Shown here in pieces: positions 42,672 to 56,053 of a stretch of DNA of 64,000 bases; the first letter of the stretch is position 1, and each line of letters opens with the position of its first letter. The stretch comes from Escherichia coli. Lineage in GTDB: Bacteria; Pseudomonadota; Gammaproteobacteria; Enterobacterales; Enterobacteriaceae. The notes under the pieces were generated by a model. It did no database searches, was not told the origin of the DNA, and saw only the letters and a program-made list of their open reading frames with translations. Where the stretch lies: assembly GCF_050920415.1 (NCBI RefSeq), contig NZ_CP169309.1, one strand, 5' to 3'. The position numbers were made by a program, and so were the translations under genes.

Positions 42672-44264
42672 TTACTCGATCCCTTTACTACGCAGGTAAT
42701 CTTCGTAATTACCGCTAAAGTCGATCACGCGTTCCGGGGTGATTTCCAGAATTCGGGTCGCCAGGGAGCTTACAAACTCACGGTCGTGAGAAACAAAGAT
42801 CAGCGTGCCCTGATACAGTTCCAGCGCCATGTTCAGCGACTCAATGGATTCCATATCCAGGTGGTTGGTCGGTTCGTCCATGATCAGAATATTCGGCTTC
42901 TGCATCATTAACTTACCAAACAGCATCCGCCCTTTTTCTCCACCGGAAAGCACTTTCGCTGGCTTTTTGATGTCGTCCTGGCTGAACAGCAAACGACCGA
43001 GAATGCTGCGTACCGCCTGCTCGTCATCGCCTTCCTGCTTCCACTGACTCATCCATTCGAATACGGTCAGATCATTTTCGAACTCATATTCGTGGTCCTG
43101 GGCGTAGTAACCAATGCGCGCGTTTTCAGACCATTTTACGGTGCCGCTGTCCGGTTGCAGATCGCCCACCAGCGTTTTCAGCAGCGTTGATTTACCGACG
43201 CCGTTGGTACCCAGTACCGCCAGTTTTTCACCCACTTCCAGCAGCAGGTTGAGATTTTTAAACAGGGGACCGTTATCAAACCCTTTGGTCAGATCTTCCA
43301 CTTCCAGCGCGTTACGGAACAGTTTCTTATCCTGTTCAAAACGGATGAACGGGTTCTGACGGCTGGAGGCTTTCACCTCTTCAAGTTTGATTTTATCAAT
43401 CTGGCGTGCGCGCGAAGTTGCCTGGCGAGATTTCGAGGCGTTGGCACTAAAGCGGCTAACGAAAGATTGCAACTCAGCAATCTGCGCTTTCTTCTTGGCG
43501 TTATCAGCCAGCAGACGTTCACGCGCCTGAGTCGCCGCCGTCATGTACTCATCGTAGTTGCCCGGATAAACGCGCAGTTCACCGTAATCCAGATCCGCCA
43601 TGTGGGTACAAACCATGTTAAGGAAGTGACGGTCGTGCGAGATGATGATCATGGTGCTGTCACGCTCGTTCAGCACCTGTTCCAGCCAACGAATGGTGTC
43701 GATGTCGAGGTTGTTGGTCGGTTCGTCGAGCAGGAGAATGTCCGGATCAGCAAACAGCGCCTGCGCCAGCAGCACACGCAGCTTCCAGCCAGGAGCAACT
43801 TCACTCATCGGGCCGTAGTGCTGTTCCACTGGAATTCCCACGCCAAGCAACAGTTCACCAGCGCGAGCTTCCGCAGAGTAACCGTCCATTTCGCCGTATT
43901 TCACTTCCAGATCGGCCACTTTATAGCCGTCTTCTTCACTCATTTCCGGCAAAGCATAGATGCGGTCGCGCTCCTGCTTCACTTCCCACAACTCTTTATG
44001 CCCCATGATCACCGTATCCAGCACGGTGAACTCTTCAAAGGCAAACTGATCCTGACGCAATTTACCAATGCGCTCGTTGGGATCGAGGGAAACGTTACCC
44101 AGCGTCGGCTCTAAGTCGCCGCCAAGGATCTTCATAAAGGTGGATTTACCACTACCGTTCGCGCCAATCAGGCCGTAACGGTTGCCGCCGCCAAACTTGA
44201 CGGAAATGTTTTCAAACAACGGCTTACTGCCGAACTGCATGGTGACGTTACTGGAAACTAACAC
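42672..44264 (-). CDS. ybiT: ABC-F family ATPase YbiT
   Basis: 530-aa ORF with two ABC cassettes (GANGSGKST and GTNGVGKST) and no TM domain. Confidence 0.93.
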
Positions 44265-44482
44265 AGGCGTATCCTGAAAAGAGATATGACAAACCGCGTA
44301 TTATGCCATAAGTCTGAAAGAAGATCCCGTCCCCCGCTTAAGGTCTACACTCTTCCCAAAGGCAAAAAATGTGATTTCGTACACATCTGATTTCACTGTG
44401 AGCTGGAATGAACTTATAATGCGCTTCCAATACTCTAATATTCTCAACCCAATGGCCTGCCAGGCACAAAATCTCGCTTAAC

Positions 44483-45403
44483 ATGAATATGAAATTGAAA
44501 ACATTATTCGCAGCGGCCTTCGCTGTTGTCGGCTTTTGCAGTACCGCCTCTGCGGTAACTTATCCTCTGCCAACCGACGGGAGTCGCCTGGTTGGTCAGA
44601 ATCAGGTGATCACCATTCCTGAAGGTAACACTCAGCCGCTGGAGTATTTTGCCGCCGAGTACCAGATGGGTCTTTCCAACATGATGGAAGCTAACCCGGG
44701 TGTGGATACCTTCCTGCCGAAAGGCGGTACTGTACTGAACATTCCGCAGCAGCTGATCCTGCCGGATACCGTTCATGAAGGCATTGTCATTAACAGCGCA
44801 GAGATGCGTCTCTATTACTATCCGAAAGGCAGCAACACCGTTATCGTGCTGCCCATCGGCATTGGTCAGTTAGGCAAAGACACGCCTATCAACTGGACCA
44901 CCAAAGTTGAGCGTAAAAAAGCAGGCCCTACCTGGACGCCGACCGCCAAAATGCACGCAGAGTACCGCGCTGCGGGCGAACCGCTTCCGGCTGTCGTTCC
45001 GGCAGGTCCGGATAACCCGATGGGGCTGTATGCACTCTACATCGGTCGCCTGTACGCTATCCATGGCACCAACGCCAACTTCGGTATCGGCCTGCGTGTA
45101 AGTCATGGTTGTGTGCGTCTGCGTAACGAAGACATCAAATTCCTGTTCGAGAAAGTGCCGGTCGGTACTCGCGTACAGTTTATTGATGAGCCGGTAAAAG
45201 CGACCACCGAGCCTGACGGCAGCCGTTATATTGAAGTCCATAACCCGCTGTCTACCACCGAAGCCCAGTTTGAAGGTCAGGAAATTGTGCCAATTACCCT
45301 GACCAAGAGCGTGCAGACAGTAACTGGTCAGCCTGATGTGGATCAGGTCGTGCTGGATGAAGCGATCAAAAATCGTTCCGGGATGCCGGTTCGTCTGAAT
45401 TAA
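44483..45403 (+). CDS. ldtB: L,D-transpeptidase LdtB (YbiS)
   Basis: 306-aa ORF with signal peptide and catalytic SHGCVRL motif. Confidence 0.93.
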
Positions 45404-45421
45404 TCTTCAAAACTTAAATTA

Positions 45422-45451
45422 AAAGGCGGACTCATAATCCGCCTTTTTTAT
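45422..45451 (+). terminator. Rho-independent terminator after ldtB
   Basis: Hairpin AAAGGCGGACTCATAATCCGCCTTT followed by TTTATTT. Confidence 0.55.
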
Positions 45452-45461
45452 TTGCCAGCAC

Positions 45462-46580
45462 CTAGCTGGCCGGGAACATAACTAACAAAACGTATCCCAC
45501 CAGCGCCGCCCACAACAGCATCGGTATTGAATAGAGATGGAAACGCCACCAGATACGGCGATCGTTTGCCATCCGTAACGCAATCAAATTTGCCAGCGAT
45601 CCGGGTAATAAACCAAAGCCACCCACGTTTACCGCCCATGCCAGTAATAAAGACGGTGGCACATAATTGAGCAGCAAAATCGTGCTCGGCACGTTACTGA
45701 TCACCTGCGATAAACCAATTGCCGTTAACCATAATCCGGGTTCGGATAAATGGCTCACATTGCTCAACACGCCCTGCAAAGCTGGCAGTTGGGTCAGCAA
45801 ATGGACGTCGATAAACATCGCCATAAATACCAGCAGCAGAGTCCAGTCCACGCTGATCACCACGCGACGAGCCAGCAGCGCAAAGCCCGCCGCTACAATC
45901 ACCAGTCCCCACAGCTCTTGTTTTAACTCCAGCGCCGTCAGAAAGACGATATACAGCCCCAGACAACTCCACACCAGCCGCGGTTTCCACTCAGGTGTTT
46001 GCGCCCCCGTATGATATTGCAGCGCCTTTCCAGGGAAACAACACCAGCACAGTAGCAGGAGTGTCAGCATCATTGCGCCAGCCAGCGGTGCCATTTGGGC
46101 AATAAACCCGGCAAACGAAAGACCAGAACGACCCCAGATAAGAATATTTTGCGGGTTGCCAATCGGCGTCAGTAGCGAACCCGCATTGACTGCCAGCGCC
46201 TCAAAAATAATCAGTCGATTAACCGGGATCTCACACAGTCTTTTTAGTGTGATTGTCAGCGGAACAACAATAAACAGCGCGACATCGTTGGTCAGAAATG
46301 TTGAAAGCAACGCCGCCGCCAGCACCATAAACATTGCCAGCCGACGCTCAGTAGCAAAGCGGCGCACCATTTTGCGCCCCAGCACATCAAAATAACCGCT
46401 TAACTCCACACCTTTGGTCAGCAGCATCAGGCCACTGAGGGTGATGATAGTGTGCCAGTCGATAGCAGCAAGCCAGGATTTCGGTGCAAAGGGAACGAAA
46501 AAACTTAATCCGATGCCAACAAGAATTAATAACTGAAAAAAGCGATCGCCTTGTAGCGTGCGTAAAAAAGGCAGGCTCAT
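45462..46580 (-). CDS. ybiR: Putative anion permease YbiR (ArsB/NhaD superfamily)
   Basis: 372-aa multi-TM ORF; ATGA overlap with the mntR stop. Confidence 0.9.
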
Positions 46581-47044
46581 TTGGCACCGTGTTTCTGGGT
46601 AAACAAACGAAAGGCATCCAGCGTCTCTTCACTGACATGGTGCTCCATGCCTTCCGCGTCGCGACGAGCGATTTCCGGGCTGACGCCCAACACCAACAAG
46701 AAATTTTCGACTATCTGATGTCGCTCGCGGCTTTCCTGCGCCAGTTTCTCTCCTTCTGCCGTTAAAAACACGCCACGCCAGGGGATCATTTCAATCAGCC
46801 CCATGGTTGCCAGTCGTTTGAGCATTTTAGCCACCGTCGGTTGCGAAACGCCCAGACGAGCAGCCATGTCCACCTGACGAGCTTCCCCCACTTCCCTGAT
46901 CAAGTCAGAAATCAGCTCAACGTAATCATCAATAAGCTCGCGCCGGTGTGCCTCTCTGACCTGGCGGAACCCTTCAACGTGCTCTTCCACATTCACTAAC
47001 TGCGTCACTTTTTTTGCTGTTGGCGTACCTGCGCGACGACTCAT
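46577..47044 (-). CDS. mntR: Manganese-responsive transcriptional regulator MntR (DtxR family)
   Basis: 155-aa [25 protein letters not shown] matching recalled MntR. Confidence 0.95.
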
Positions 47045-47409
47045 TGTGCTTCCTCATTATGGTGACGCATACATAGCGTTCTCATTTCGTGCGCACATTG
47101 TAAACCAGAGTTGCGAAGGTACAAAAAATTAACGTTTTAGCAATAGCTATATAATATAGCTTTGGACCCCAATAAAAACCAAATGAAAACAATTAATTAT
47201 GAAAGAAATATCATTGTAATGTCGCAAGAATGTCGCAGAATTTTGAATTTTACATCAAACAGAAATCTTACATAAGTCGTCGAAAAGGAAAACTACCAAT
47301 ATCTTTTCGGTGTTTCCTTTCCCCAAATGGAATTTTTCCTGTTATGCTAATATTCGTTTTAAGGTGTTGATAACTAACATTACACAAAGCAATTAGAACG
47401 GATACTAAC

Positions 47410-48984
47410 ATGGCTAAAAACGCAAAAAACGAGAAACCAAAAAAGTTAGCTTATAGAATAAAAAGTATTAATATTGAAAAATTAAAAGGTATAAATAACT
47501 GCCCTATTTCCTTCCCAGCAGACAGGTCTGTAACTGCTATAATGGGAATTAATGGTTCAGGTAAATCAACAATATTGCACGCTCTATCATGTGTTTTCAA
47601 ACCCAAAGAAAAATCATCCCAAGAAAATAATAGATTTTCTGACTTCTTTACCCCTCACAATGAAAATAACTGGCAAGATAGTAAATTCTCAGTAAAATTT
47701 CGAGCGGGAGAGATAAAAAACAATGGTAATAAAGTCTTTTTTGAAGAAATAGATAATGAAGAAAAGAAAGATATTGTTTATGGCAAGGATAAAAGGTGGA
47801 AACCAGTTTACGCAAGAAGACTTGAAAGAGAATCTATATATATAGGATTACAAAATCTTGCAACGTTAGCTGACAATACAGGAGCATCAAGATACTCAGA
47901 ATATGAAAGAGTAGATATTTATGATAAAGATATAAAGAATCAAATGATATTAGCTCTGAATAAAATCTTAGATGCAGATTACAACGATTTGTTTGAATGC
48001 CGCACCATTAAGGGAAACAAAAAATTCATAGGCATGGTTAAAAACGGCATTGAGTATACAGAACATACTATGGGTGCTGGAGAAAAGAGAGTCTTTGAGA
48101 TAGTTAAAAATGTTTATAATGGAAAGTTAATGCCCAATGGTTTTCTAATCATTGATGAAATAGATGTTTTGCTACATGAAAGAGCTTTTCATGAATTAAT
48201 TAATTTTCTTATCGAAGAAAGCAAGTCTATGTGTTTTGAGGTTGTTTTCACAACACATAGAGAATCCATAATAAAGTTTAAAAATCAAATCAATATAGTA
48301 AGTATATGGAACATAGGGAATGGAATAGAGGCTTATCCCGGCGTTTCTGCGGATGCTCTTCGACAGATATCCAATGTAGAACCTGATATGGTCAATGTGT
48401 TTGTAGAAGACAACTTAGCAAAAACAGCACTAAATATTTTAGTTGAAAGTGAAGGTATGAATGAACAAGTTGATATCTCGCTTTTTGGTTCGGCTGAGAA
48501 TTCAGCTGTAATTTTGTCAGGACTTAAATTAACTGGCAAACGAATTGATACAAGCCTGGCAATTTTAGACGGTGATTACTATATTACCCTCCCTGAAAAG
48601 ACCAAAATGGTTGATAGAGTGTTATCTGGAACAGATAAAAAAGTAGAAAAAAAAGAAGTCTTATCAAGAATATTCCAATTCAATTTAGATGTGACTGACG
48701 TCAAAGGCTCTCCAGAAAAAAACCATCGTGATTGGTTTGAATCTATAGACGAAAACAATATTTCGGAAAATGATAAGACAATGTTTCTTAACCTGAAAAA
48801 ACATTCTACAAGTATTGGTGCTTTAACTGATTATCATGAATATTATCCAGAGTTAGCTCGAAGGTCAAAATTAGATAATATTGAGTACAAAGTTTTGAAT
48901 TATATTAGTAAGTATAGTAATAAATGGGATTTTTACATAAATGATATTAGAAATGAAATAAAAAAAGCAATTGCAGCGATCTAA
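47410..48984 (+). CDS. ABC-type ATPase fused to a TOPRIM-like domain; class-1 OLD-family-like nuclease, candidate anti-phage defence protein
   Basis: 524-aa ORF in AT-rich DNA. Walker A GINGSGKST (aa 46-54), signature-like MGAGEKR (221-227), Walker B FLIIDEID (245-252), H-loop TTHR (281-284), then a TOPRIM-like Glu (FVEDN, E333) and DxD (LDGDY, 387-389). Own terminator downstream. Confidence 0.6.
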   Translation: MAKNAKNEKPKKLAYRIKSINIEKLKGINNCPISFPADRSVTAIMGINGSGKSTILHALSCVFKPKEKSSQENNRFSDFFTPHNENNWQDSKFSVKFRAGEIKNNGNKVFFEEIDNEEKKDIVYGKDKRWKPVYARRLERESIYIGLQNLATLADNTGASRYSEYERVDIYDKDIKNQMILALNKILDADYNDLFECRTIKGNKKFIGMVKNGIEYTEHTMGAGEKRVFEIVKNVYNGKLMPNGFLIIDEIDVLLHERAFHELINFLIEESKSMCFEVVFTTHRESIIKFKNQINIVSIWNIGNGIEAYPGVSADALRQISNVEPDMVNVFVEDNLAKTALNILVESEGMNEQVDISLFGSAENSAVILSGLKLTGKRIDTSLAILDGDYYITLPEKTKMVDRVLSGTDKKVEKKEVLSRIFQFNLDVTDVKGSPEKNHRDWFESIDENNISENDKTMFLNLKKHSTSIGALTDYHEYYPELARRSKLDNIEYKVLNYISKYSNKWDFYINDIRNEIKKAIAAI

Positions 48985-48991
48985 ACCTCAT

Positions 48992-49021
48992 AAAAGGCGT
49001 AATTTATACGCCTTTTTTTAA
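48992..49021 (+). terminator. Rho-independent terminator after the OLD-like gene
   Basis: Hairpin AAAAGGCGTAATTTATACGCCTTTT followed by a T-run, 8 nt after the stop. Confidence 0.55.
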
Positions 49022-49181
49022 GGTTTAAATTATAGTTGCTAATTTCTACTCTTTGTTCCCTCTGTTCGTGCACGTTTCAGGTAGTAAGCTCTCCATCGAA
49101 CCATAGAGATTGAACGCTTTGATTTTTTTTTACATACTGTCTGAAGCTCATTTACTAAGTATTGATAGTCAGGATGACAAC

Positions 49182-49808
49182 ATGACCTCCTACGATGAAC
49201 TTAAAGAATGCATCCGCCTTGAAGTCATTGGCCATGACAAATCCTTTTCATGGCGTAAAGCGTTACTTCGTACCCGACGCAACCAGAAGAAGCACTTCCT
49301 GTTCTGGTGGCGTATCGCTTCATGGCTCTATGGCCAGAATAGTAAGTTCAAAAAGCGCATTGCCCGCAGAATTGAAAACCGCCTCAAGTACCTGCATAGC
49401 GTTGATATTTCGCTGTCATGCAAAATCGGCAAGGGTTTAAACATTGCTCATCTGAACGGTATTGTCATTACTGACAATTGCGTGATTGGTGATTTCGCCG
49501 ACCTGAAGCAAGGCATCACCATAGGGTTACGCACCGACAGTGCCGACGCGATGATAGTCATTGGTGATCATGTTGATATTGGCTGTAATTCGTCCATTCT
49601 GGGCGGCAAGGTTACGATCGGAAACAATGTCACCATTGGGGCGCATTCACTGGTACTTCAGAACATCCCCAGCGACACCGTTTATAAAAACAAGATCACG
49701 CCGGTGTATACATCCAAACTACCGCAGCAGGAATATCAGGAAAATCGGCCTTTTGTCACTGGCAAGGCGATAAAAGAAGCGTCCCGTTCCGCAGAAGCGG
49801 TGCTGTAA
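49182..49808 (+). CDS. Hexapeptide-repeat (left-handed beta-helix) acetyltransferase, CysE/WcaB-like
   Basis: Start MTSYDELKE preceded by AGGATG; the 232-aa track start at 49110 has no RBS. N-terminal helical region (RIASWLY...RIARRIENRLKYLHSVDI) then hexapeptide repeats IGKGLNIAH-GIVITDNCVIGD-ITIG-IVIGDHVDIG-VTIGNNVTIGAHSLVL. Confidence 0.6.
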   Translation: MTSYDELKECIRLEVIGHDKSFSWRKALLRTRRNQKKHFLFWWRIASWLYGQNSKFKKRIARRIENRLKYLHSVDISLSCKIGKGLNIAHLNGIVITDNCVIGDFADLKQGITIGLRTDSADAMIVIGDHVDIGCNSSILGGKVTIGNNVTIGAHSLVLQNIPSDTVYKNKITPVYTSKLPQQEYQENRPFVTGKAIKEASRSAEAVL

Positions 49809-50186
49809 TTTCGCTGAACAAATTTCAGTTATGAAGATTGCATAAATTTACGTGCAGCCCGCGCCAGCTCTTACAAGCGGGCTAATCTCTATAATGTCTG
49901 GCTTATCTCCCAACGATCCACGAACACCGCCTAAAATATAATTTTCCCTTTATTATCTGTGCGTTATGATTTTACACCGATCCTTAACAGATCCTCTTTA
50001 CTGAAAAAAATGAAATTTCTTTCAATCATTTCAGTTCCTGTTCTCCGCAAAGCCGCCAGTAATGGTGCGGTCTGGCGCTCTGGTTTGTAGAAAAATAAAA
50101 CTGAAAAAATTTCCAGATCCAGAAACCGCAGGCGGGTGCGGTGTAGCGCCGTTTTTGTCTGCGAAAGATTTATTTTGTCGGCGCAT

Positions 50187-50230
50187 CGCAGCGCCAGCGC
50201 AGCGCCAGCGCAGCGCCAGCGCAGCGCCAT
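50187..50230. repeat. Four tandem copies of an 11-bp unit CGCAGCGCCAG
   Basis: Direct reading: cgcagcgccag x3 then cgcagcgccat, in the non-coding gap between the acetyltransferase and the tail operon. Confidence 0.8.
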
Positions 50231-50315
50231 GCGCACGATCTTTTATGTGTGTTGCGTTGGGTTAATTTGTTGCCTGAAGTGCTGAGGGCGCGTTCTGCTG
50301 CGTCTGAGGAAGGGT

Positions 50316-50342
50316 ATGAAAAAGCCCGCATTATGCGGGCGT
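50316..50342 (-). terminator. Rho-independent terminator at the end of the tail operon
   Basis: On the minus strand, hairpin GCCCGCATAATGCGGGC followed by TTTTTC, 10 nt after the stop of the 567-aa gene. Confidence 0.5.
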
Positions 50343-50352
50343 GTTGTCATGG

Positions 50353-52056
50353 TCAGGCAATTATATTCTGGTACTTGCTCCGGGTCTGCCCTGCTTTCGT
50401 CGCCGTCTGTACGAACGCGTCAGCATTGGTTGGCGTCCCAACAGTGGGGTGTGAATGGTTCGCGCATTGCTGCGCCAGCTCTGCCAGTAAATCAATGGTA
50501 TCCAGCATCATGGTCAGGGCGTTGATACTCTCGCTGCCAATATGGACAGTTGCCCCCATGACCTGCTGACCGCCAGCGGCCACTGATTTACGCAGTGCGG
50601 CAATCTTCTCTGTCAGGCTTTCGCCAACCTCCACGGCTACAGCACCGCCCACTTTAGTGGACTGCTGTCCTGCTATGTCCGTTTCTTCGTTTCCTTCAAT
50701 ACTGGCCAGCCTGTTTCCTTTCACCGCCTGGCTATAATCACCGGCGCTTACCTGCTGGATGGCTCCGGCCAGCAGTGTGGCGGTTCCCAGTACCGTGGTT
50801 TTATCCGTGGCTTTCACCGTGGTTTCACGGCTGACCAGTTCGCGCTGTTCCGTATCGGCTTTTACGGTTCGCGCCATCGATGTTTCGCTGATGGTCTGAT
50901 CGGTCTGCCTTACCCAGTCGCCCGCCTGAGTCACCCTCTGGGATACTTCTTCCCGCTGCTGCTGCAACTGTTCACCGGGTTTAACGTCCGGCAGACTGGT
51001 GCCATCCGGTAGCGTCTGCCTGATAAAAGGTTTATCCGGTCTGCCTCCCGTGAATGCAACCTCAACCAGCGTCCCTTCTGGCGGAAACTGAAACATACCT
51101 GAATCATTCCCGGCCATTGGTACCGGCAGCGGCACCGCTGAATAAACAGGCGTCTGATTGTCCGGGTTTCCGTCTGCGTCAAGCAGCTGCACGTCCACGG
51201 CGTAACGTGGCCGGAAGGGATCGGCAAAGTTACCGCTTTTTACCGGCTCTGAATGCGCCACAACTCTGGCCATCTTTGGCAAATGAAGCCCGGATGCCAG
51301 TTCCGGGTAATGGCTTTCAATCTGCCGTTGCGCCGGTGTTTTCTGCAAAGGTTTACCCGTTGCGCGGTTTCTCGGCGTCCATGTGATCGCCATCGCGTCA
51401 TTAGTCAGGTGAACTTTAGTCACGCGTTCACCGTTCATCTCCACCCCTGGCCGCATAGTCTGGATCACTGGTAATGTCACAGAGTTACCGCCAGCAGCCC
51501 CCTGGCTGAACTCTGACGGGATTTCTACGGGGCGACCGGCAAATAATGACTTTTCTGCGCCGCCGACGTAAAGCGAACCATCAGGCAACTGGTACCAGAT
51601 GTAATCCTGGATACTGAACGCCCTTCCCAGATTGTTCAGCAACTGATAACCAGTACCGTTATGGGTAAAATGTGGGATGGGGGTATCGCTGTACTGTGCA
51701 TCAGGCACACTGACCGTGATCCCGCTGTTTTCTTCCAGCCAGCTGGCAACCTCGCGTAAAGTTGGATGTTGAAATGAGCACGGCCACATCCTTTCAAATA
51801 CACCTGCCAGCTCACGAATGAACAGACGCTGAAAACCGTTTTCAGCGGGCTGCGATCGCTCCACATACCCCGTAAACCAGCGCAAAAGCAGATCGGTATA
51901 CCCCACATCCAGCCGCACCAGTTTTCCGGTGTAATCGGTTGTTGTCTCTGCGGTGATGAAGCCCCGGCCGCAGCTGTTCAGCTCCAGTACCAGGCTGGCA
52001 TCCACCAGGTGAACTTCATCAGTTGAAAGGTAAAGGCGTTTTACTGGTTTCATCAT
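50353..52056 (-). CDS. Phage tail hub/spike-like protein (gpV/VgrG-type OB-fold candidate)
   Basis: 567-aa ORF, last gene of the tail operon; internal segment GTLVEVAFTGGRPDKPFIRQTLPDG resembles the G-x-V-x-V-x-F-x-G-D-x-D-x-P-x-I motif of gpV/gp5/VgrG spikes; Ala/Gly/Thr-rich C-terminal region. Confidence 0.4.
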   Translation of the reverse strand: MMKPVKRLYLSTDEVHLVDASLVLELNSCGRGFITAETTTDYTGKLVRLDVGYTDLLLRWFTGYVERSQPAENGFQRLFIRELAGVFERMWPCSFQHPTLREVASWLEENSGITVSVPDAQYSDTPIPHFTHNGTGYQLLNNLGRAFSIQDYIWYQLPDGSLYVGGAEKSLFAGRPVEIPSEFSQGAAGGNSVTLPVIQTMRPGVEMNGERVTKVHLTNDAMAITWTPRNRATGKPLQKTPAQRQIESHYPELASGLHLPKMARVVAHSEPVKSGNFADPFRPRYAVDVQLLDADGNPDNQTPVYSAVPLPVPMAGNDSGMFQFPPEGTLVEVAFTGGRPDKPFIRQTLPDGTSLPDVKPGEQLQQQREEVSQRVTQAGDWVRQTDQTISETSMARTVKADTEQRELVSRETTVKATDKTTVLGTATLLAGAIQQVSAGDYSQAVKGNRLASIEGNEETDIAGQQSTKVGGAVAVEVGESLTEKIAALRKSVAAGGQQVMGATVHIGSESINALTMMLDTIDLLAELAQQCANHSHPTVGTPTNADAFVQTATKAGQTRSKYQNIIA

Positions 52057-52601
52057 TAACCCAAAGCATCATTGACGGGCTTCAGCACCTTGCGTTCAAA
52101 CCACGTCAGTTTTTCTTCATCTTCTCCGGCAGACTGGCCACCGGACTGTCCCGCACTGCCGGTAGTCTGTTTTTTTGCGGTCGTCTTACCTGTTGCCCTG
52201 GCCTCTCGCTTTTCCTGCACGCTGATATGTTCCGCCAGTGTGAATGTCACCAGCCAGGCCATTTTCCCGTCCTGCTGGGGTGCATCCAGCATTCCGCTGA
52301 ACGTTGCTTCACGAAAATTAACAGCACGGGCAACTTCATGCGCCACGCGGTACTTCTGACGATTACCACTGGCATCGGTAGCACTGGCCAGCTCAAAAAT
52401 ACGCTTCAGTATTTCAGGCTGTTTAAAAGGTATTTCACCGCTGATCCGCAGTTCCTTTCCCTTTGCTCCCTGCTCTGATTTTGTTGTGGCGCTGGTCTGG
52501 CCGGACTGATCTTTATCCTGAAATTGCTGTGAAACAGTCACCCGCATGTTTTTCAGCTGGATGGCCTCGCCATTAAGCGCCAGTGTCGGGATCGAAGTCA
52601 T
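52056..52601 (-). CDS. Phage protein of unknown function within the tail operon
   Basis: 181-aa ORF translationally coupled to neighbours; no recognisable motif; Lys/Gln/Gly-rich C-terminus. Confidence 0.35.
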   Translation of the reverse strand: MTSIPTLALNGEAIQLKNMRVTVSQQFQDKDQSGQTSATTKSEQGAKGKELRISGEIPFKQPEILKRIFELASATDASGNRQKYRVAHEVARAVNFREATFSGMLDAPQQDGKMAWLVTFTLAEHISVQEKREARATGKTTAKKQTTGSAGQSGGQSAGEDEEKLTWFERKVLKPVNDALG

Positions 52602-53298
52602 GAATCATTCCCTTTATTCCATCAAGATTATCGCCAACCAGCATCATGGCAGCGGTGTAAACGGCAGACTGCTGCGGAATGTCCTTCACCAGTTCCAGTA
52701 ACGTGGTGCCGGTGTCTCCGCTGGCAGTAAAAACCCACACTCTGGCACTCTTTCCCTGTAAATCATTCAGGCCGCTGGCTACATCACTGATAAGCTGGTC
52801 ACGCAGCTGCGTGAACTCGCCCAGCTGTTTTTTCAGCCCTTCGATATCAAACCCGGCATCCGCCGCCTTTTGTGCCTGGCTGATTGCCGTAGCAGATAAA
52901 GCTGCCCTGCTGGTTGGTACAGACAGCGGAATGGACGCAGGTAACGCTGCGGCGGTTTTCGCAGGGATCTGCATCTTTTCAATAGCCAGCGCTGCGGCGG
53001 ATTGCGCCAGTCGTTTGACCTGCGTGAATGCCGGGGCGGGGAAAATCCCGACCAGGTTATTCAGGCTGGCCATAAAGTTTTCCTGTGTCTGTCCGGTGAC
53101 CATCATAATCACCACGTCCGCATTCCCCCCAGTTCCGGCCAGGCGTTCAGCAAGATAGCGAACGGCATTAACCGGGCTGAGATATGCCCCGTTCGCAGTC
53201 TGCTGTCCCAGCCCATAAATCCACGGATGCGCAGGAACGATCGAACAGTTCAGCGCAGCAACAGAATCCGTGAAGGCCAGACGTGCTTCACGCCACAT
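52573..53298 (-). CDS. Phage protein of unknown function within the tail operon
   Basis: ORF 52573-53334; start chosen at MWREARL to minimise overlap with tfa; no recognisable motif. Confidence 0.3.
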   Translation of the reverse strand: MWREARLAFTDSVAALNCSIVPAHPWIYGLGQQTANGAYLSPVNAVRYLAERLAGTGGNADVVIMMVTGQTQENFMASLNNLVGIFPAPAFTQVKRLAQSAAALAIEKMQIPAKTAAALPASIPLSVPTSRAALSATAISQAQKAADAGFDIEGLKKQLGEFTQLRDQLISDVASGLNDLQGKSARVWVFTASGDTGTTLLELVKDIPQQSAVYTAAMMLVGDNLDGIKGMIHDFDPDTGA

Positions 53299-53875
53299 TT
53301 CCAGGCACCTCCGGCCACACAATTTCCGGCGCATCTTCCGGTTGAATACGGTTCAGTAAAACGCGGTATTTTTTCCAGGCGGTAAGCAGCAGTGCTTCTT
53401 CTTCAGTCGCCATGTCTAAATCAACGGCATCCTGCAATGTGGCAATGGCGTCATTGGCCTGTTTAAGCAGTCTTTTCTTTTCGGCGTCTGCCTCGCTGAC
53501 TAATGCAATTCGCATGGCCTCCGCATCATCCACCCACGCCTTACCATTCCATTTTTGCCAGGCATTAGCCGGTGCAGACGTGGTTGTCCCTTCCGGGTAA
53601 GCGCCTGGCTCGGTGATCACCAGTTCATTACCGTTTTCTGTATCAAACACCACCTCACCACGATGATCCTCACGGGAAATCCATCTTTGCTTCTCTGAAT
53701 CAAAAATTGCCACAAACCCCGCTTTGATTACCGGTGGTTTTATTGTGGTGCAGTTAGCTGGTAGTCCGGTATGCGCAGGTATAAAAGCGTCACCCGAACC
53801 AATAAATTCATTCGTGTCGGAACGCAGGTTATAAACAGTAACTATTTGATCGGTTTCACTCATTTTAAAAGTCAT
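53288..53875 (-). CDS. Tail fiber assembly protein (Tfa family)
   Basis: 195 aa; close resemblance to recalled E. coli TfaE/TfaQ-type proteins (NEFIGSGDAFIPAHTGLPAN ... KWNGKAWV ... LLTAWKKYRVLLNRIQPEDAPEIVWPEVP). Confidence 0.8.
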   Translation of the reverse strand: MTFKMSETDQIVTVYNLRSDTNEFIGSGDAFIPAHTGLPANCTTIKPPVIKAGFVAIFDSEKQRWISREDHRGEVVFDTENGNELVITEPGAYPEGTTTSAPANAWQKWNGKAWVDDAEAMRIALVSEADAEKKRLLKQANDAIATLQDAVDLDMATEEEALLLTAWKKYRVLLNRIQPEDAPEIVWPEVPGNVA

Positions 53876-55449
53876 TATGCGAGTCTCACTATGTAGTTAA
53901 ATGCAATATTCTTAACGGTCGTTTCTGCGTTGCCCGACGCGGCGACGGTAATGGTGTGGCTATGTGCGCCAATTGCCACGGTATGAGAGTGAGCGCCAAT
54001 ACCTACGGTGTGATTATGTGCACCAATGGCTACGGTGTGCGCGTGGTTTCCCGCCGAACTGGTGGCGGCTCGCCCCTGATCGCTACGTGGTACCCCCCAG
54101 TCACTACCACCTGATTGCACGTTCCCGCCATAACCAATGGTGTGCGTATGCGCTCCCGTGGTATTTGTCGTTTTCGTGCCATAGTCAAACGTGCTCGCCG
54201 TTTTAGTACCGTAATCAAAGGACGATGTTGGTTTTGTCCCCAGATCGGTACTGGATGCACTGGCTGTGTGGTCATGAGATTTATTGCCATCATCTTCATA
54301 GGAGAGAACTGCGCGACCGTCTGGCTTTCCTTTGATTGTCTGGCGGCGCATGTCAGTAATAACACCCGATGGATACGCAGCAGCCAGCAAAGGATATGCC
54401 GCCGTATTAAAAGACTGCCCCTGCATAATTGCCCATCCAGTAGGTGGGATATCCGTTGGCCATGGAAGCGGCACACCAACCGGCAGAACATCACTGCGAC
54501 TTAAAACGGCCAGTTCACCCAGATCCAGACTTTTTCTTGCTTTTACTTTGTCGTTAACATCAGCAAGGTTTGCATCCTTACGCAAAAAATCGCTGCTGGC
54601 CTGCTGTTCTCCCAGGCTACCTTTTGGCCTTAAATCCGTGATGTTGCCATCCGCATCAATGCTGGCCACAGCAAACACATAATGCTGAACCCCGTTCTGA
54701 ACGTAATCAGCAAGATTTGCAGCCACCGTGATTTTGCTCTGCACATTCCAGACACTGGTCAGCGTCCCTGTCCAGCACACATCCAGCCAGACTTTTACCG
54801 GCTTTGTCGTTACCGTAATATTCTGATTCGCAGCCAGTGACGCACGAAGTCCAGCCACATACCCCGTGCCTTTCGTGACAAAAAACTGATTTCCGGTTTT
54901 GGCTACCAGATACCCGTTACCAAAAAACGCCGCCGCGCCATAAATATCCATATTTTCCAGGCGCTGGCGCTCATCCATTCCGGCCATACGCGCTGTAAAA
55001 TCAATCTGCCATGTTTCAGCGGGTGTATTAATCCCGGTTTCCGTTTGTGCGCCGTTGTACTCCATCAGAAACGAGCGGGTCAGCACGTTCCCCTGTTGAC
55101 CTTCTTTTGTTTTCAGTTTCTGCTGTGATGGTGCATGGACAATCATTGCCAGAGTACCGCTGGCCTTATTGAGCAGACCGATCCAGTTAAAACTGAAATC
55201 ACCCACATCTGCGCCCAGCACTACGGAATAAACCACCCCGTTTTCATTCACCACACCGGTGCGGGTAACAGATTGCCGGTGAACAATCTGTGCTGTCGGG
55301 GGCAACGCTTCATTGCGGTCAACAGGTGTATCCGGGTTTAAATCCGGCACACTGGCAAAAACAAATTCATCCAGTAGTACCGGTTCACCCGTTGCGCCCT
55401 GCTGTGCTTTCCAGTTTTCAAACGCCAGTGTGATGGCTGTCTGTGACAT
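53875..55449 (-). CDS. Side tail fiber protein
   Basis: 524 aa; C-terminal HxH repeats [49 protein letters not shown] typical of Stf-family fibers; immediately upstream of tfa. Confidence 0.8.
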
Positions 55450-55459
55450 AAAAACCTCC

Positions 55460-56053
55460 TTACAAACTCGCGCTGAATGTTGCGCTGCGGGCTTCCGTCC
55501 CTGCTAACGTCGCCGGGTAAACCACATATTCCCCCTGATCCCACCCAGCCCTGATAACCAGGCTTTCAGACGTGATCACCTCAAACTGATAACGGCGGCA
55601 TGTTCGCCCGTACTGGCGGATTATCTGGATCAGCAGCTGCGTGTTGTCTGCAATCTGGCTGTCTGTAACCCGAACCAGAATCACATCCCAGTCGATATCC
55701 GGTTGCCGTTCTAACAGCTCCACATAACCAATTCCCAGCCGTTCAAAGATATTGATAAACCCCTCTACTGAACCGGCATCCCGCGCATTCACGAAGGCAA
55801 AAGCCACGCGTTTGCGGAACAGGGTCAACGGTTCACCATCAAAGCGGGTGATATCCCGGTCATAAGCCAGCAGATTCAGTAATGCCGGTGTACACGTCAG
55901 CGGATCAAACTGGTTCATTGGCCAGGTAACCCAGCCGTAAACCTCAGCCCAGAACCGCCGCGCCGCTTTCAGCAATTTCCCCGGTTCACCTTTATTCATC
56001 CAGGAAGGCAAGACCATCCCGGCCAGCTTTTTCATGAACTCATTCATTCTCAA
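55460..56053 (-). CDS. Tail protein, YmfQ/gpI-like (DUF2313-type)
   Basis: 197 aa between the baseplate J-like gene and the fiber, as for e14 ymfQ; family assignment is from memory only. Confidence 0.55.

Follow-up and report, generated by a model that had tools for sequence, protein, structure and literature searches.

A divergent ATPase-Toprim protein of the HEC-04/IbfA family as probable anti-phage cargo at the att end of an ESSI-2-like prophage of Escherichia coli

The subject of this study is a gene at positions 47410–48984 (+ strand) of a 64,000-nucleotide stretch of Escherichia coli DNA (contig NZ_CP169309.1, assembly GCF_050920415.1; referred to as the window). From its ATG start, the open reading frame (ORF) encodes a 524-amino acid protein that joins an ATP-binding cassette (ABC) ATPase head to a predicted Toprim nuclease core. 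An ESSI-2-like prophage of the P2 family has the gene at its attachment (att) end as accessory cargo, and the protein probably constitutes, by itself, an anti-phage system of the HEC-04/IbfA family. A preliminary description, made from the sequence of the window, had called the protein a class 1 OLD-like nuclease. That description holds in its main points, and most of the profile and structure checks that it suggested came out in its favour. The architecture agrees with the class 1 OLD-like label; however, the PADLOC Old model and P2 Old itself match only parts of the ATPase head, and the family to which the protein belongs is HEC-04/IbfA. Since this family has published defence phenotypes, the protein is best regarded as a divergent member of a known group, and it is less novel than the preliminary description implied.

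Among the 77 PADLOC families that matched the protein, HEC-04 scored best (E 3.1e-33, 113 bits), aligning residues 9–410 with positions 17–394 of a 494-position profile. The second-best was the ATPase-Toprim_I-B retron effector model (E 1.3e-20, residues 19–464), and the Old, GajA, AriA and PtuA models matched parts of the ATPase head only. PHROG 3940, to which no function is assigned, covers residues 16–500 (E 3.6e-47). The experimentally tested HEC-04 protein (WP_044502283.1), of which the first 399 residues were available for alignment from Table S2 of the original paper, is 25% identical over 379 amino acids by BLASTP (E 4e-21). In this alignment the Walker A lysine, the Toprim glutamate and the DxD motif correspond residue for residue: K52 aligns with K62, E333 with E319, and D387 and D389 with D375 and D377. 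HEC-04, or Hma-embedded candidate 4, comes from E. coli MOD1-EC5853; it is toxic on induction, and its K62A and E319A/D375A/D377A mutants lose defence against coliphages (Payne et al., bioRxiv 10.1101/2024.01.29.577857). The two proteins also differ in several respects. The tested gene (1473 nt, about 490 amino acids) lies inside an Hma system, whereas the 524-residue protein described here is encoded at a prophage end, and the HEC-04 profile stops short of its last 110 residues.

A second relative is a 518-amino acid protein encoded next to a ProQ/FinO gene on the IncF plasmid pVE-T9_2 (IncFIA/IncFIC), which is 32% identical over 415 amino acids (residues 17–426 of the query). Because its length and its ProQ/FinO neighbour fit the published description of IbfA, it was taken to be IbfA. 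IbfA is found on IncI1 and IncF plasmids, including R64 and pUA1135, and has been described as a 518-amino acid, two-domain ATPase-Toprim protein of PADLOC class HEC-04 that causes an abortive-type interference with P22-like and other phages (PMC12111858). It resembles the present protein in architecture and length; it differs in being plasmid-borne beside a ProQ/FinO gene and in its C-terminal 100 amino acids, to which BLASTP gave no alignment. At a threshold of E 1e-30, an exhaustive homologue search returned 153 clusters (50% identity); of the 150 listed, the majority span most of the query. A clade at 51–52% identity is common in Klebsiella, Enterobacter, Salmonella and Proteus and on IncF plasmids.

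The motifs quoted in the preliminary description were all located by script at the residues given there. In the ATPase half these are GINGSGKST at 46–54 (Walker A, with K52), MGAGEKR at 221–227 (signature), FLIIDEID at 245–252 (Walker B) and TTHR at 281–284 (H-loop); in the Toprim half they are FVEDN at 331–335 (with E333) and LDGDY at 386–390 (with D387 and D389), and the spacing from E333 to D387 is 54 residues, as had been estimated. Conservation was assessed across 77 homologues, the most distant of which is 27% identical. All 77 retain K52, M221/A223/G224/E225, D249/E250 and H283 in the ATPase head, as well as E333/D334 and D387/G388/D389 in the C-terminal half. Since these residues are invariant down to 27% identity, the motifs are beyond what chance would produce.

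The ABC/SMC-type ATPase head occupies residues 1–300 (47410–48309, + strand) and is supported by Pfam, Foldseek, an AlphaFold2 (AF2) model and the invariant residues. The Walker A motif with K52 is encoded at 47545–47571 (+ strand), and the signature MGAGE, the Walker B pair D249-E250 and H283 of the H-loop are also present. Pfam matches include SMC_N (2.1e-14, residues 17–294), AAA_15, AAA_23 and AAA_21, which bears out the earlier assignment of an ABC ATPase. Sequence searches of the PDB, made with both the protein and a family profile, match the ATPase heads of PtuA, Ts OLD, AriA, SMC and Rad50. The full-length AF2 model has a predicted local distance difference test score (pLDDT) of 86.6, and its Foldseek matches include Rad50, Ts OLD (rank 2, 574 columns), retron effectors (Eco8, 9lpa_B, rank 5) and PtuA. 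Between Walker A and the signature, the model is mainly β-strand with a single 15-residue helix at 173–187; a four-helix dimerization insert of the Ts OLD type is not seen in this predicted structure.

Because the full-length Foldseek search was dominated by Rad50, SMC and PtuA heads, residues 296–524 were modelled separately. The resulting model (pLDDT 88.7, predicted TM-score 0.80) begins with four strand-helix units and ends in a helical bundle. Against the PDB, Foldseek placed the C-terminal region of Xcc OLD first (6njv, E 4e-4, 211 columns), followed by two chains of Bp OLD (6nk8, E 6e-3) and by Ts OLD (6p74, E 0.05), with all other targets at E above 0.06. A second structure-comparison list gave PH0156 (2p62) at 9.2, Bp OLD at 8.6, Ts OLD at 8.3, AriB at 7.2 and GajA at 6.1. 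OLD nucleases, in their catalytic C-terminal regions, give the best match to the C-terminal model, AriB and GajA come next, and the structural comparison upholds the Toprim core that had been proposed from motif spacing. The core spans approximately residues 326–395 (48385–48594, + strand) as judged from the invariant residues, the HEC-04 alignment, the strand-helix repeats of the AF2 model and the fold matches to OLD C-terminal regions. Its metal-binding glutamate, E333, is encoded at 48406–48408 (+ strand) and D387-G388-D389 at 48568–48576 (+ strand).

Class 2 OLD C-terminal regions consist of a Toprim and a helical domain, and the Class 1 protein Ts OLD is without that helical domain (PMC7049728). 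In the predicted structure, residues 396–524 (48595–48981, + strand; pLDDT 94–97) form the helical domain that Class 2 OLD C-terminal regions have next to their Toprim core, an assignment that draws on the model, on conservation and on the co-alignment of this segment with the Class 2 region. The 130-residue tail in which no motif had previously been recognized can thus be replaced by a helical domain that aligns, together with the Toprim core, over about 211 columns to Class 2 OLD C-terminal regions. Conserved positions of the C-terminal half in the family are V332-E333-D334, G360, N364, D387-G388-D389, G407, P435, H476 and W506, and E436, beside P435, is kept in at least 90% of homologue sequences.

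A comparison with the metal sites of Ts OLD may be considered in terms of two sets of ligands, E377, D431 and D433 for metal A and D381, S478 and E480 for metal B (PMC7049728). The metal A ligands fit E333, D387 and D389, all of which are invariant. For metal B, the residue at position E+4 (337) is an alanine, the adjacent D334 is invariant, and a S434-P435-E436 sequence follows D389 at a distance of 47 residues, just as E480 follows D433 in Ts OLD. From these positions, S434-P435-E436 may form a second metal site, with D334 possibly standing in for the acidic residue at E+4.

The prophage is integrated between mntR and mntS, and its left flank is the E. coli ybiT-ldtB-ybiR-mntR region. Homology to K-12 (blastn) ends at 47160, which is three bases before the annotated 5' end of rybA/mntS, and the last 11 bp, TATAATATAGC at 47150–47160 (no strand assigned), recur beside the integrase and mntS at the other junction, as seen in the closest genome (L018, 17462–17472). 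Doublets of ATGTCGC are found just inside both prophage ends. Given the 11-bp sequence at both junctions and these doublets, 47150–47160 is taken as the attL core, which has the gene starting 250 bp inside the prophage. The preliminary description had recognized the gene as cargo but had placed it between the prophage and the host chromosome; the cargo assignment stands, whereas the position is inside the prophage, at a distance of 250 bp from attL. The intervening leader (47161–47409, + strand), delimited by reading the sequence, contains ATGTCGC at 47219–47225 and 47230–47236, repeats that look like integrase arm sites.

The gene is far poorer in G+C (0.315) than the ybiT-mntR stretch to its left (0.517) or the prophage to its right (0.531), and its first 60 nt contain 16 G+C, as had been counted before. 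It also has an intrinsic terminator at 48992–49019 (+ strand), a hairpin at 48992–49016 followed by seven U, with a folding energy of −19.7 kcal/mol and a z of −7.4. A simple terminator scan overlooked this hairpin; folding against shuffled sequences detected it, as none of 200 shuffles folded equally well. The gene has a terminator of its own and needs no conserved neighbour; its standing alone and its terminator both agree with the preliminary description.

The inner edge of the slot that holds the gene is marked by the first conserved prophage gene, a baseplate gene at 50353–52056 (− strand; phrog_2258, E 5.6e-276). From 50300 to 62000, the tail and baseplate region is 96.9% identical to Escherichia phage ESSI2_ev129. 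A tblastn search of deposited phage genomes found no close homologue of the ATPase-Toprim protein, the matches being 24–26% identical over the ATPase half only. The deposited ESSI2-like records omit the slot, since they start about 180 bp ahead of window position 50300, or about 230 bp ahead of the baseplate gene. The same arrangement was found in one complete E. coli genome only (NZ_OZ547246.1, 95.6% identity), where the P2-family prophage measures about 31.8 kb from the junction to the integrase beside mntS.

Related prophages differ in the genes that they carry in the stretch from the att core to the baseplate gene (47161–50352). The combination of the ATPase-Toprim gene and an acetyltransferase gene occupies this slot in 1 of 5426 complete genomes; elsewhere the slot holds a reverse transcriptase gene with the acetyltransferase, the acetyltransferase alone, a DUF6338 protein with two hypothetical proteins, or a single 345-amino acid hypothetical protein. 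Individual loci illustrate these occupants: a 254-amino acid reverse transcriptase-domain protein (L002, 8453–9217), DUF6338 with two small hypothetical proteins (L004, 5351–6833) and the 345-amino acid hypothetical protein (L005, 5381–6418). Sequence that is conserved among related prophages resumes at about 50000–50179 and then continues from 50313 onward.

The genomic settings of the closest homologues extend this picture. An Enterobacter homologue (85% identity) is found in the same mntR-prophage slot and a homologue from a metagenome contig (90% identity) lies directly beside the baseplate gene, both without the acetyltransferase. In Kosakonia, a homologue with 84% identity is carried by a P4-like satellite, downstream of Phage_ASH, DUF5375 and D5_N primase genes (L020, 1–6575, and L021, 160–6575, are both Kosakonia contigs), and on another contig a Kosakonia homologue sits beside GajA/GajB and a KAP NTPase. 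For the Klebsiella clade at 51% identity, the setting is an island that also holds VapBC and a KAP NTPase. As a self-contained unit, the ATPase-Toprim gene moves among the ends of P2-family prophages, P4-like satellites and defence islands. The gene alone is predicted to confer phage resistance, a prediction that the genomic context in Enterobacter, Klebsiella and Kosakonia supports.

Several results weigh against a defensive ATPase-Toprim nuclease of this family and should be set beside the evidence above. The Pfam models TOPRIM, OLD-like_TOPRIM (PF20469) and DUF4435 gave no match in the query or in the C-termini of 23 family members, so the profile check that had been proposed for the Toprim domain was negative, and a sequence-profile search of the PDB with the C-terminus also found nothing. 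As a result, the Toprim assignment rests on motifs and predicted structure, the domain being detected by defence-specific profiles and structure prediction only. The TM-scores of the matches to the C-terminal model are moderate (0.42–0.49). The two tested relatives share only 25–32% identity with the protein, and for this reason its phage range, and even its substrate, may differ from theirs. In the case of IbfA, the published phenotype is an altered phage transcription, with early genes deregulated, and not a demonstrated nuclease action, and ATP depletion was argued against (PMC12111858); the phenotype proposed for this relative is not so far linked to nuclease chemistry. Finally, a promoter scan upstream of the gene (47161–47409) found no convincing σ70 promoter and nothing better than in shuffled sequence.

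An alternative to the HEC-04/IbfA assignment is that the protein is a true Class 1 OLD nuclease and an orthologue of P2 Old, in the form of an oligomer that is inactive until it senses aberrant or replicating DNA, when it opens and goes on to cleave tRNA. It shares with P2 Old and the Class 1 proteins Ts OLD (6P74) and Vc OLD a single-gene ATPase-Toprim composition, carriage as prophage cargo and, by prediction, abortive defence, and it has no helicase or retron partner, its neighbours being mntR, the acetyltransferase gene and tail genes. Nevertheless, neither the OLD profiles nor P2 Old matched over the full length or in the Toprim region. The best-matching stretch of the PADLOC Old model is limited to residues 15–72 (E 2.5e-11 vs. 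3e-33 for HEC-04), and hhalign of the family against P2 Old aligned the part from signature to H-loop only (family-profile columns 213–306, probability 91%), leaving the C-terminus unaligned; on this basis orthology to P2 Old was rejected. The AF2 model is without the helical dimerization insert and has the C-terminal helical domain, the reverse of what Ts OLD presents in both cases (PMC7049728), and the gene is at the att end and not at the old/tin locus of P2. Taken together, a Class 1 OLD identity is improbable. The Class 2 OLD and GajA C-terminal regions (Bp OLD, 6NK8; Xcc OLD, 6NJV) show no detectable sequence similarity to the query, and the ATPase insert is different. No ORF for a gajB-type helicase (UvrD/PcrA/Rep-like) is present in the cargo slot (47161–50352), as the preliminary description had noted in setting Gabija aside, and the GajA profiles match residues 17–120 only. 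GajA of Gabija was therefore rejected.

The protein may also be imagined as a fused form of PARIS (AriA-AriB; Class 4 OLD) or as an orphaned retron type I-B effector (Class 3 OLD), triggered or restrained accordingly. The near full-length match to the PADLOC retron effector model (1.3e-20) and the rank of the Eco8 effector in the Foldseek search favour the latter. Unlike a retron effector, however, the gene is not adjoined by a reverse transcriptase or msr/msd RNA: there is no adjacent reverse transcriptase ORF, and Rfam (E up to 1) identified no retron RNA in 44000–53000. The lack of a DUF4435 match, noted above for the query and the 23 family C-termini, counts against PARIS, and the HEC-04 match is better than that of the retron effector model by 12 orders of magnitude and better than that of AriA by more than 20. 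Membership in either group was rejected on these grounds and is very unlikely. Since the ATPase head resembles Rad50, SMC and RecF, a RecF/SbcC/Rad50-like ATPase-nuclease that serves DNA repair or recombination of the prophage itself, as opposed to defence, might be considered; yet most related prophages are missing the gene and hold other cargo in its slot, the gene adjoins defence genes in other genomes, and the tested relatives HEC-04 and IbfA give phage resistance. A role in prophage repair is just as unlikely. The least likely arrangement of all is a two-gene system with the adjacent acetyltransferase, which might for example modify the target or restrain the nuclease. This gene (49182–49808, + strand) encodes a hexapeptide-repeat, serine-O-acetyltransferase-like protein (phrog_2154, function not assigned, E 1.4e-55) whose matches to the NCBIfam EpsC, CysE and WcaB models do not reach the curated cut-offs. 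In favour of a partnership, the two genes are neighbours in one variable slot and are read in the same direction, and both families are phage-borne (PHROGs 2154 and 3940). Against a partnership, a strong terminator separates them, G+C content is 0.315 for the ATPase-Toprim gene vs. 0.477 for the acetyltransferase, and PADLOC has no match for the acetyltransferase. At least 10 E. coli genomes have the acetyltransferase but not the ATPase in this slot, one of them with a reverse transcriptase beside it; no acetyltransferase accompanies the ATPase homologues that are 90%, 85% and 84% identical or those of the clade at 51%. The suggestion that the two might act together was accordingly dropped, given the terminator, the G+C difference and the absence of co-occurrence, and the acetyltransferase is treated as separate cargo. 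It recurs in the slot, alone or with different partners, and may serve lysogenic conversion or defence.

If the protein is indeed a HEC-04/IbfA-type defence system, a mechanism may be sketched by analogy with HEC-04, IbfA and better-studied ABC-Toprim systems. The ATPase head would act as the sensor and switch for an infection cue, and ATP binding or hydrolysis would rearrange the assembly on infection to free the Toprim site. The freed site would then cleave nucleic acid by metal-ion catalysis, and this cleavage would keep the phage from multiplying while sacrificing the infected cell, as in abortive infection. With respect to the substrate, nicking or degradation of DNA is slightly favoured, cleavage of tRNA or other RNA is a less likely though real possibility, and some other activity makes up the small remainder. 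GajA and the Class 1 OLD of V. cholerae act on DNA (PMC12392090). Conversely, AriB cleaves tRNA, as does P2 OLD according to a 2026 preprint.

The att core contains a TATAAT that in K-12 precedes the annotated 5' end of rybA/mntS by 8 nt. On integration, attL (window 47127–47166) retains the upstream part of the mntS promoter, which is regulated by Mn/MntR, and this part points toward the ATPase-Toprim gene, which begins 247 nt from this promoter remnant with no predicted terminator between. At attR (L018, 17440–17480), mntS keeps the core only, together with upstream sequence derived from the phage. Read-through from a host promoter into the defence gene is possible, as is an altered regulation of mntS. 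Transcription from the mntS promoter is conceivable because the att core is its −10 element and its upstream part remains at attL facing the gene. A more ambitious combined proposal would have the protein represent a functionally distinct OLD-like lineage that performs triggered cleavage of tRNA, and not of DNA, and that is transcribed in the lysogen from the manganese-regulated mntS promoter; as a whole this proposal is doubtful. The lineage in question may be characterized by a β-rich ABC head without the dimerization insert joined to a Class-2-like module of Toprim plus helical domain.

With this study, a poorly annotated "AAA family ATPase" is assigned to a defence family that has been validated by experiment and is not yet explained in mechanistic terms, and the family is shown to travel across the Enterobacterales as cargo, with P2-family prophages, P4-like satellites and conjugative plasmids as its carriers. 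The residues K52, E333, D387 and D389, and perhaps E436 and H476, are pinpointed for mutation, and a question is posed to the field as to whether DNA or tRNA is the target of the HEC-04/IbfA Toprim effector. The att-proximal end of ESSI-2-like prophages is marked as a variable cargo slot, and its other occupants, namely the 345-amino acid hypothetical protein, the DUF6338 trio, the reverse transcriptase and the recurrent acetyltransferase, become candidate defence genes.

One subclade of the family consists of homologues of about 810 amino acids (P0080, P0089, P0090, P0097, P0112, P0115 and approximately ten more; an example is at 2472–4919 of L019) in which an N-terminal Pfam DNA_methylase domain, that of C5 cytosine methyltransferases, is fused to the ATPase-Toprim body. 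On inspection of P0097 by eye, a motif I-like IGG is kept and the catalytic PCQ motif was not seen. As this motif is missing from P0097, the fused domain may be a DNA-binding or sensor module and not an active methylase.

Two minor observations concern other parts of the window. Near the inner edge of the slot, at 50187–50235, an 11-bp tandem repeat of CGCAGCGCCAG is present in 4.4 copies (97% matches). At this site the closest relatives (L001, 15349–15681, and L009, 7646–7978) carry a gene for a 110-amino acid hypothetical protein that is missing from the window, and the region measures 569 bp in L001 vs. 139 bp in the window. In the left flank, the ldtB-ybiR intergenic region (45386–45449, + strand) has a sub-threshold Rfam match to the Salmonella small RNA STnc40 (33.2 bits vs. 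a gathering threshold of 45, E 0.008).

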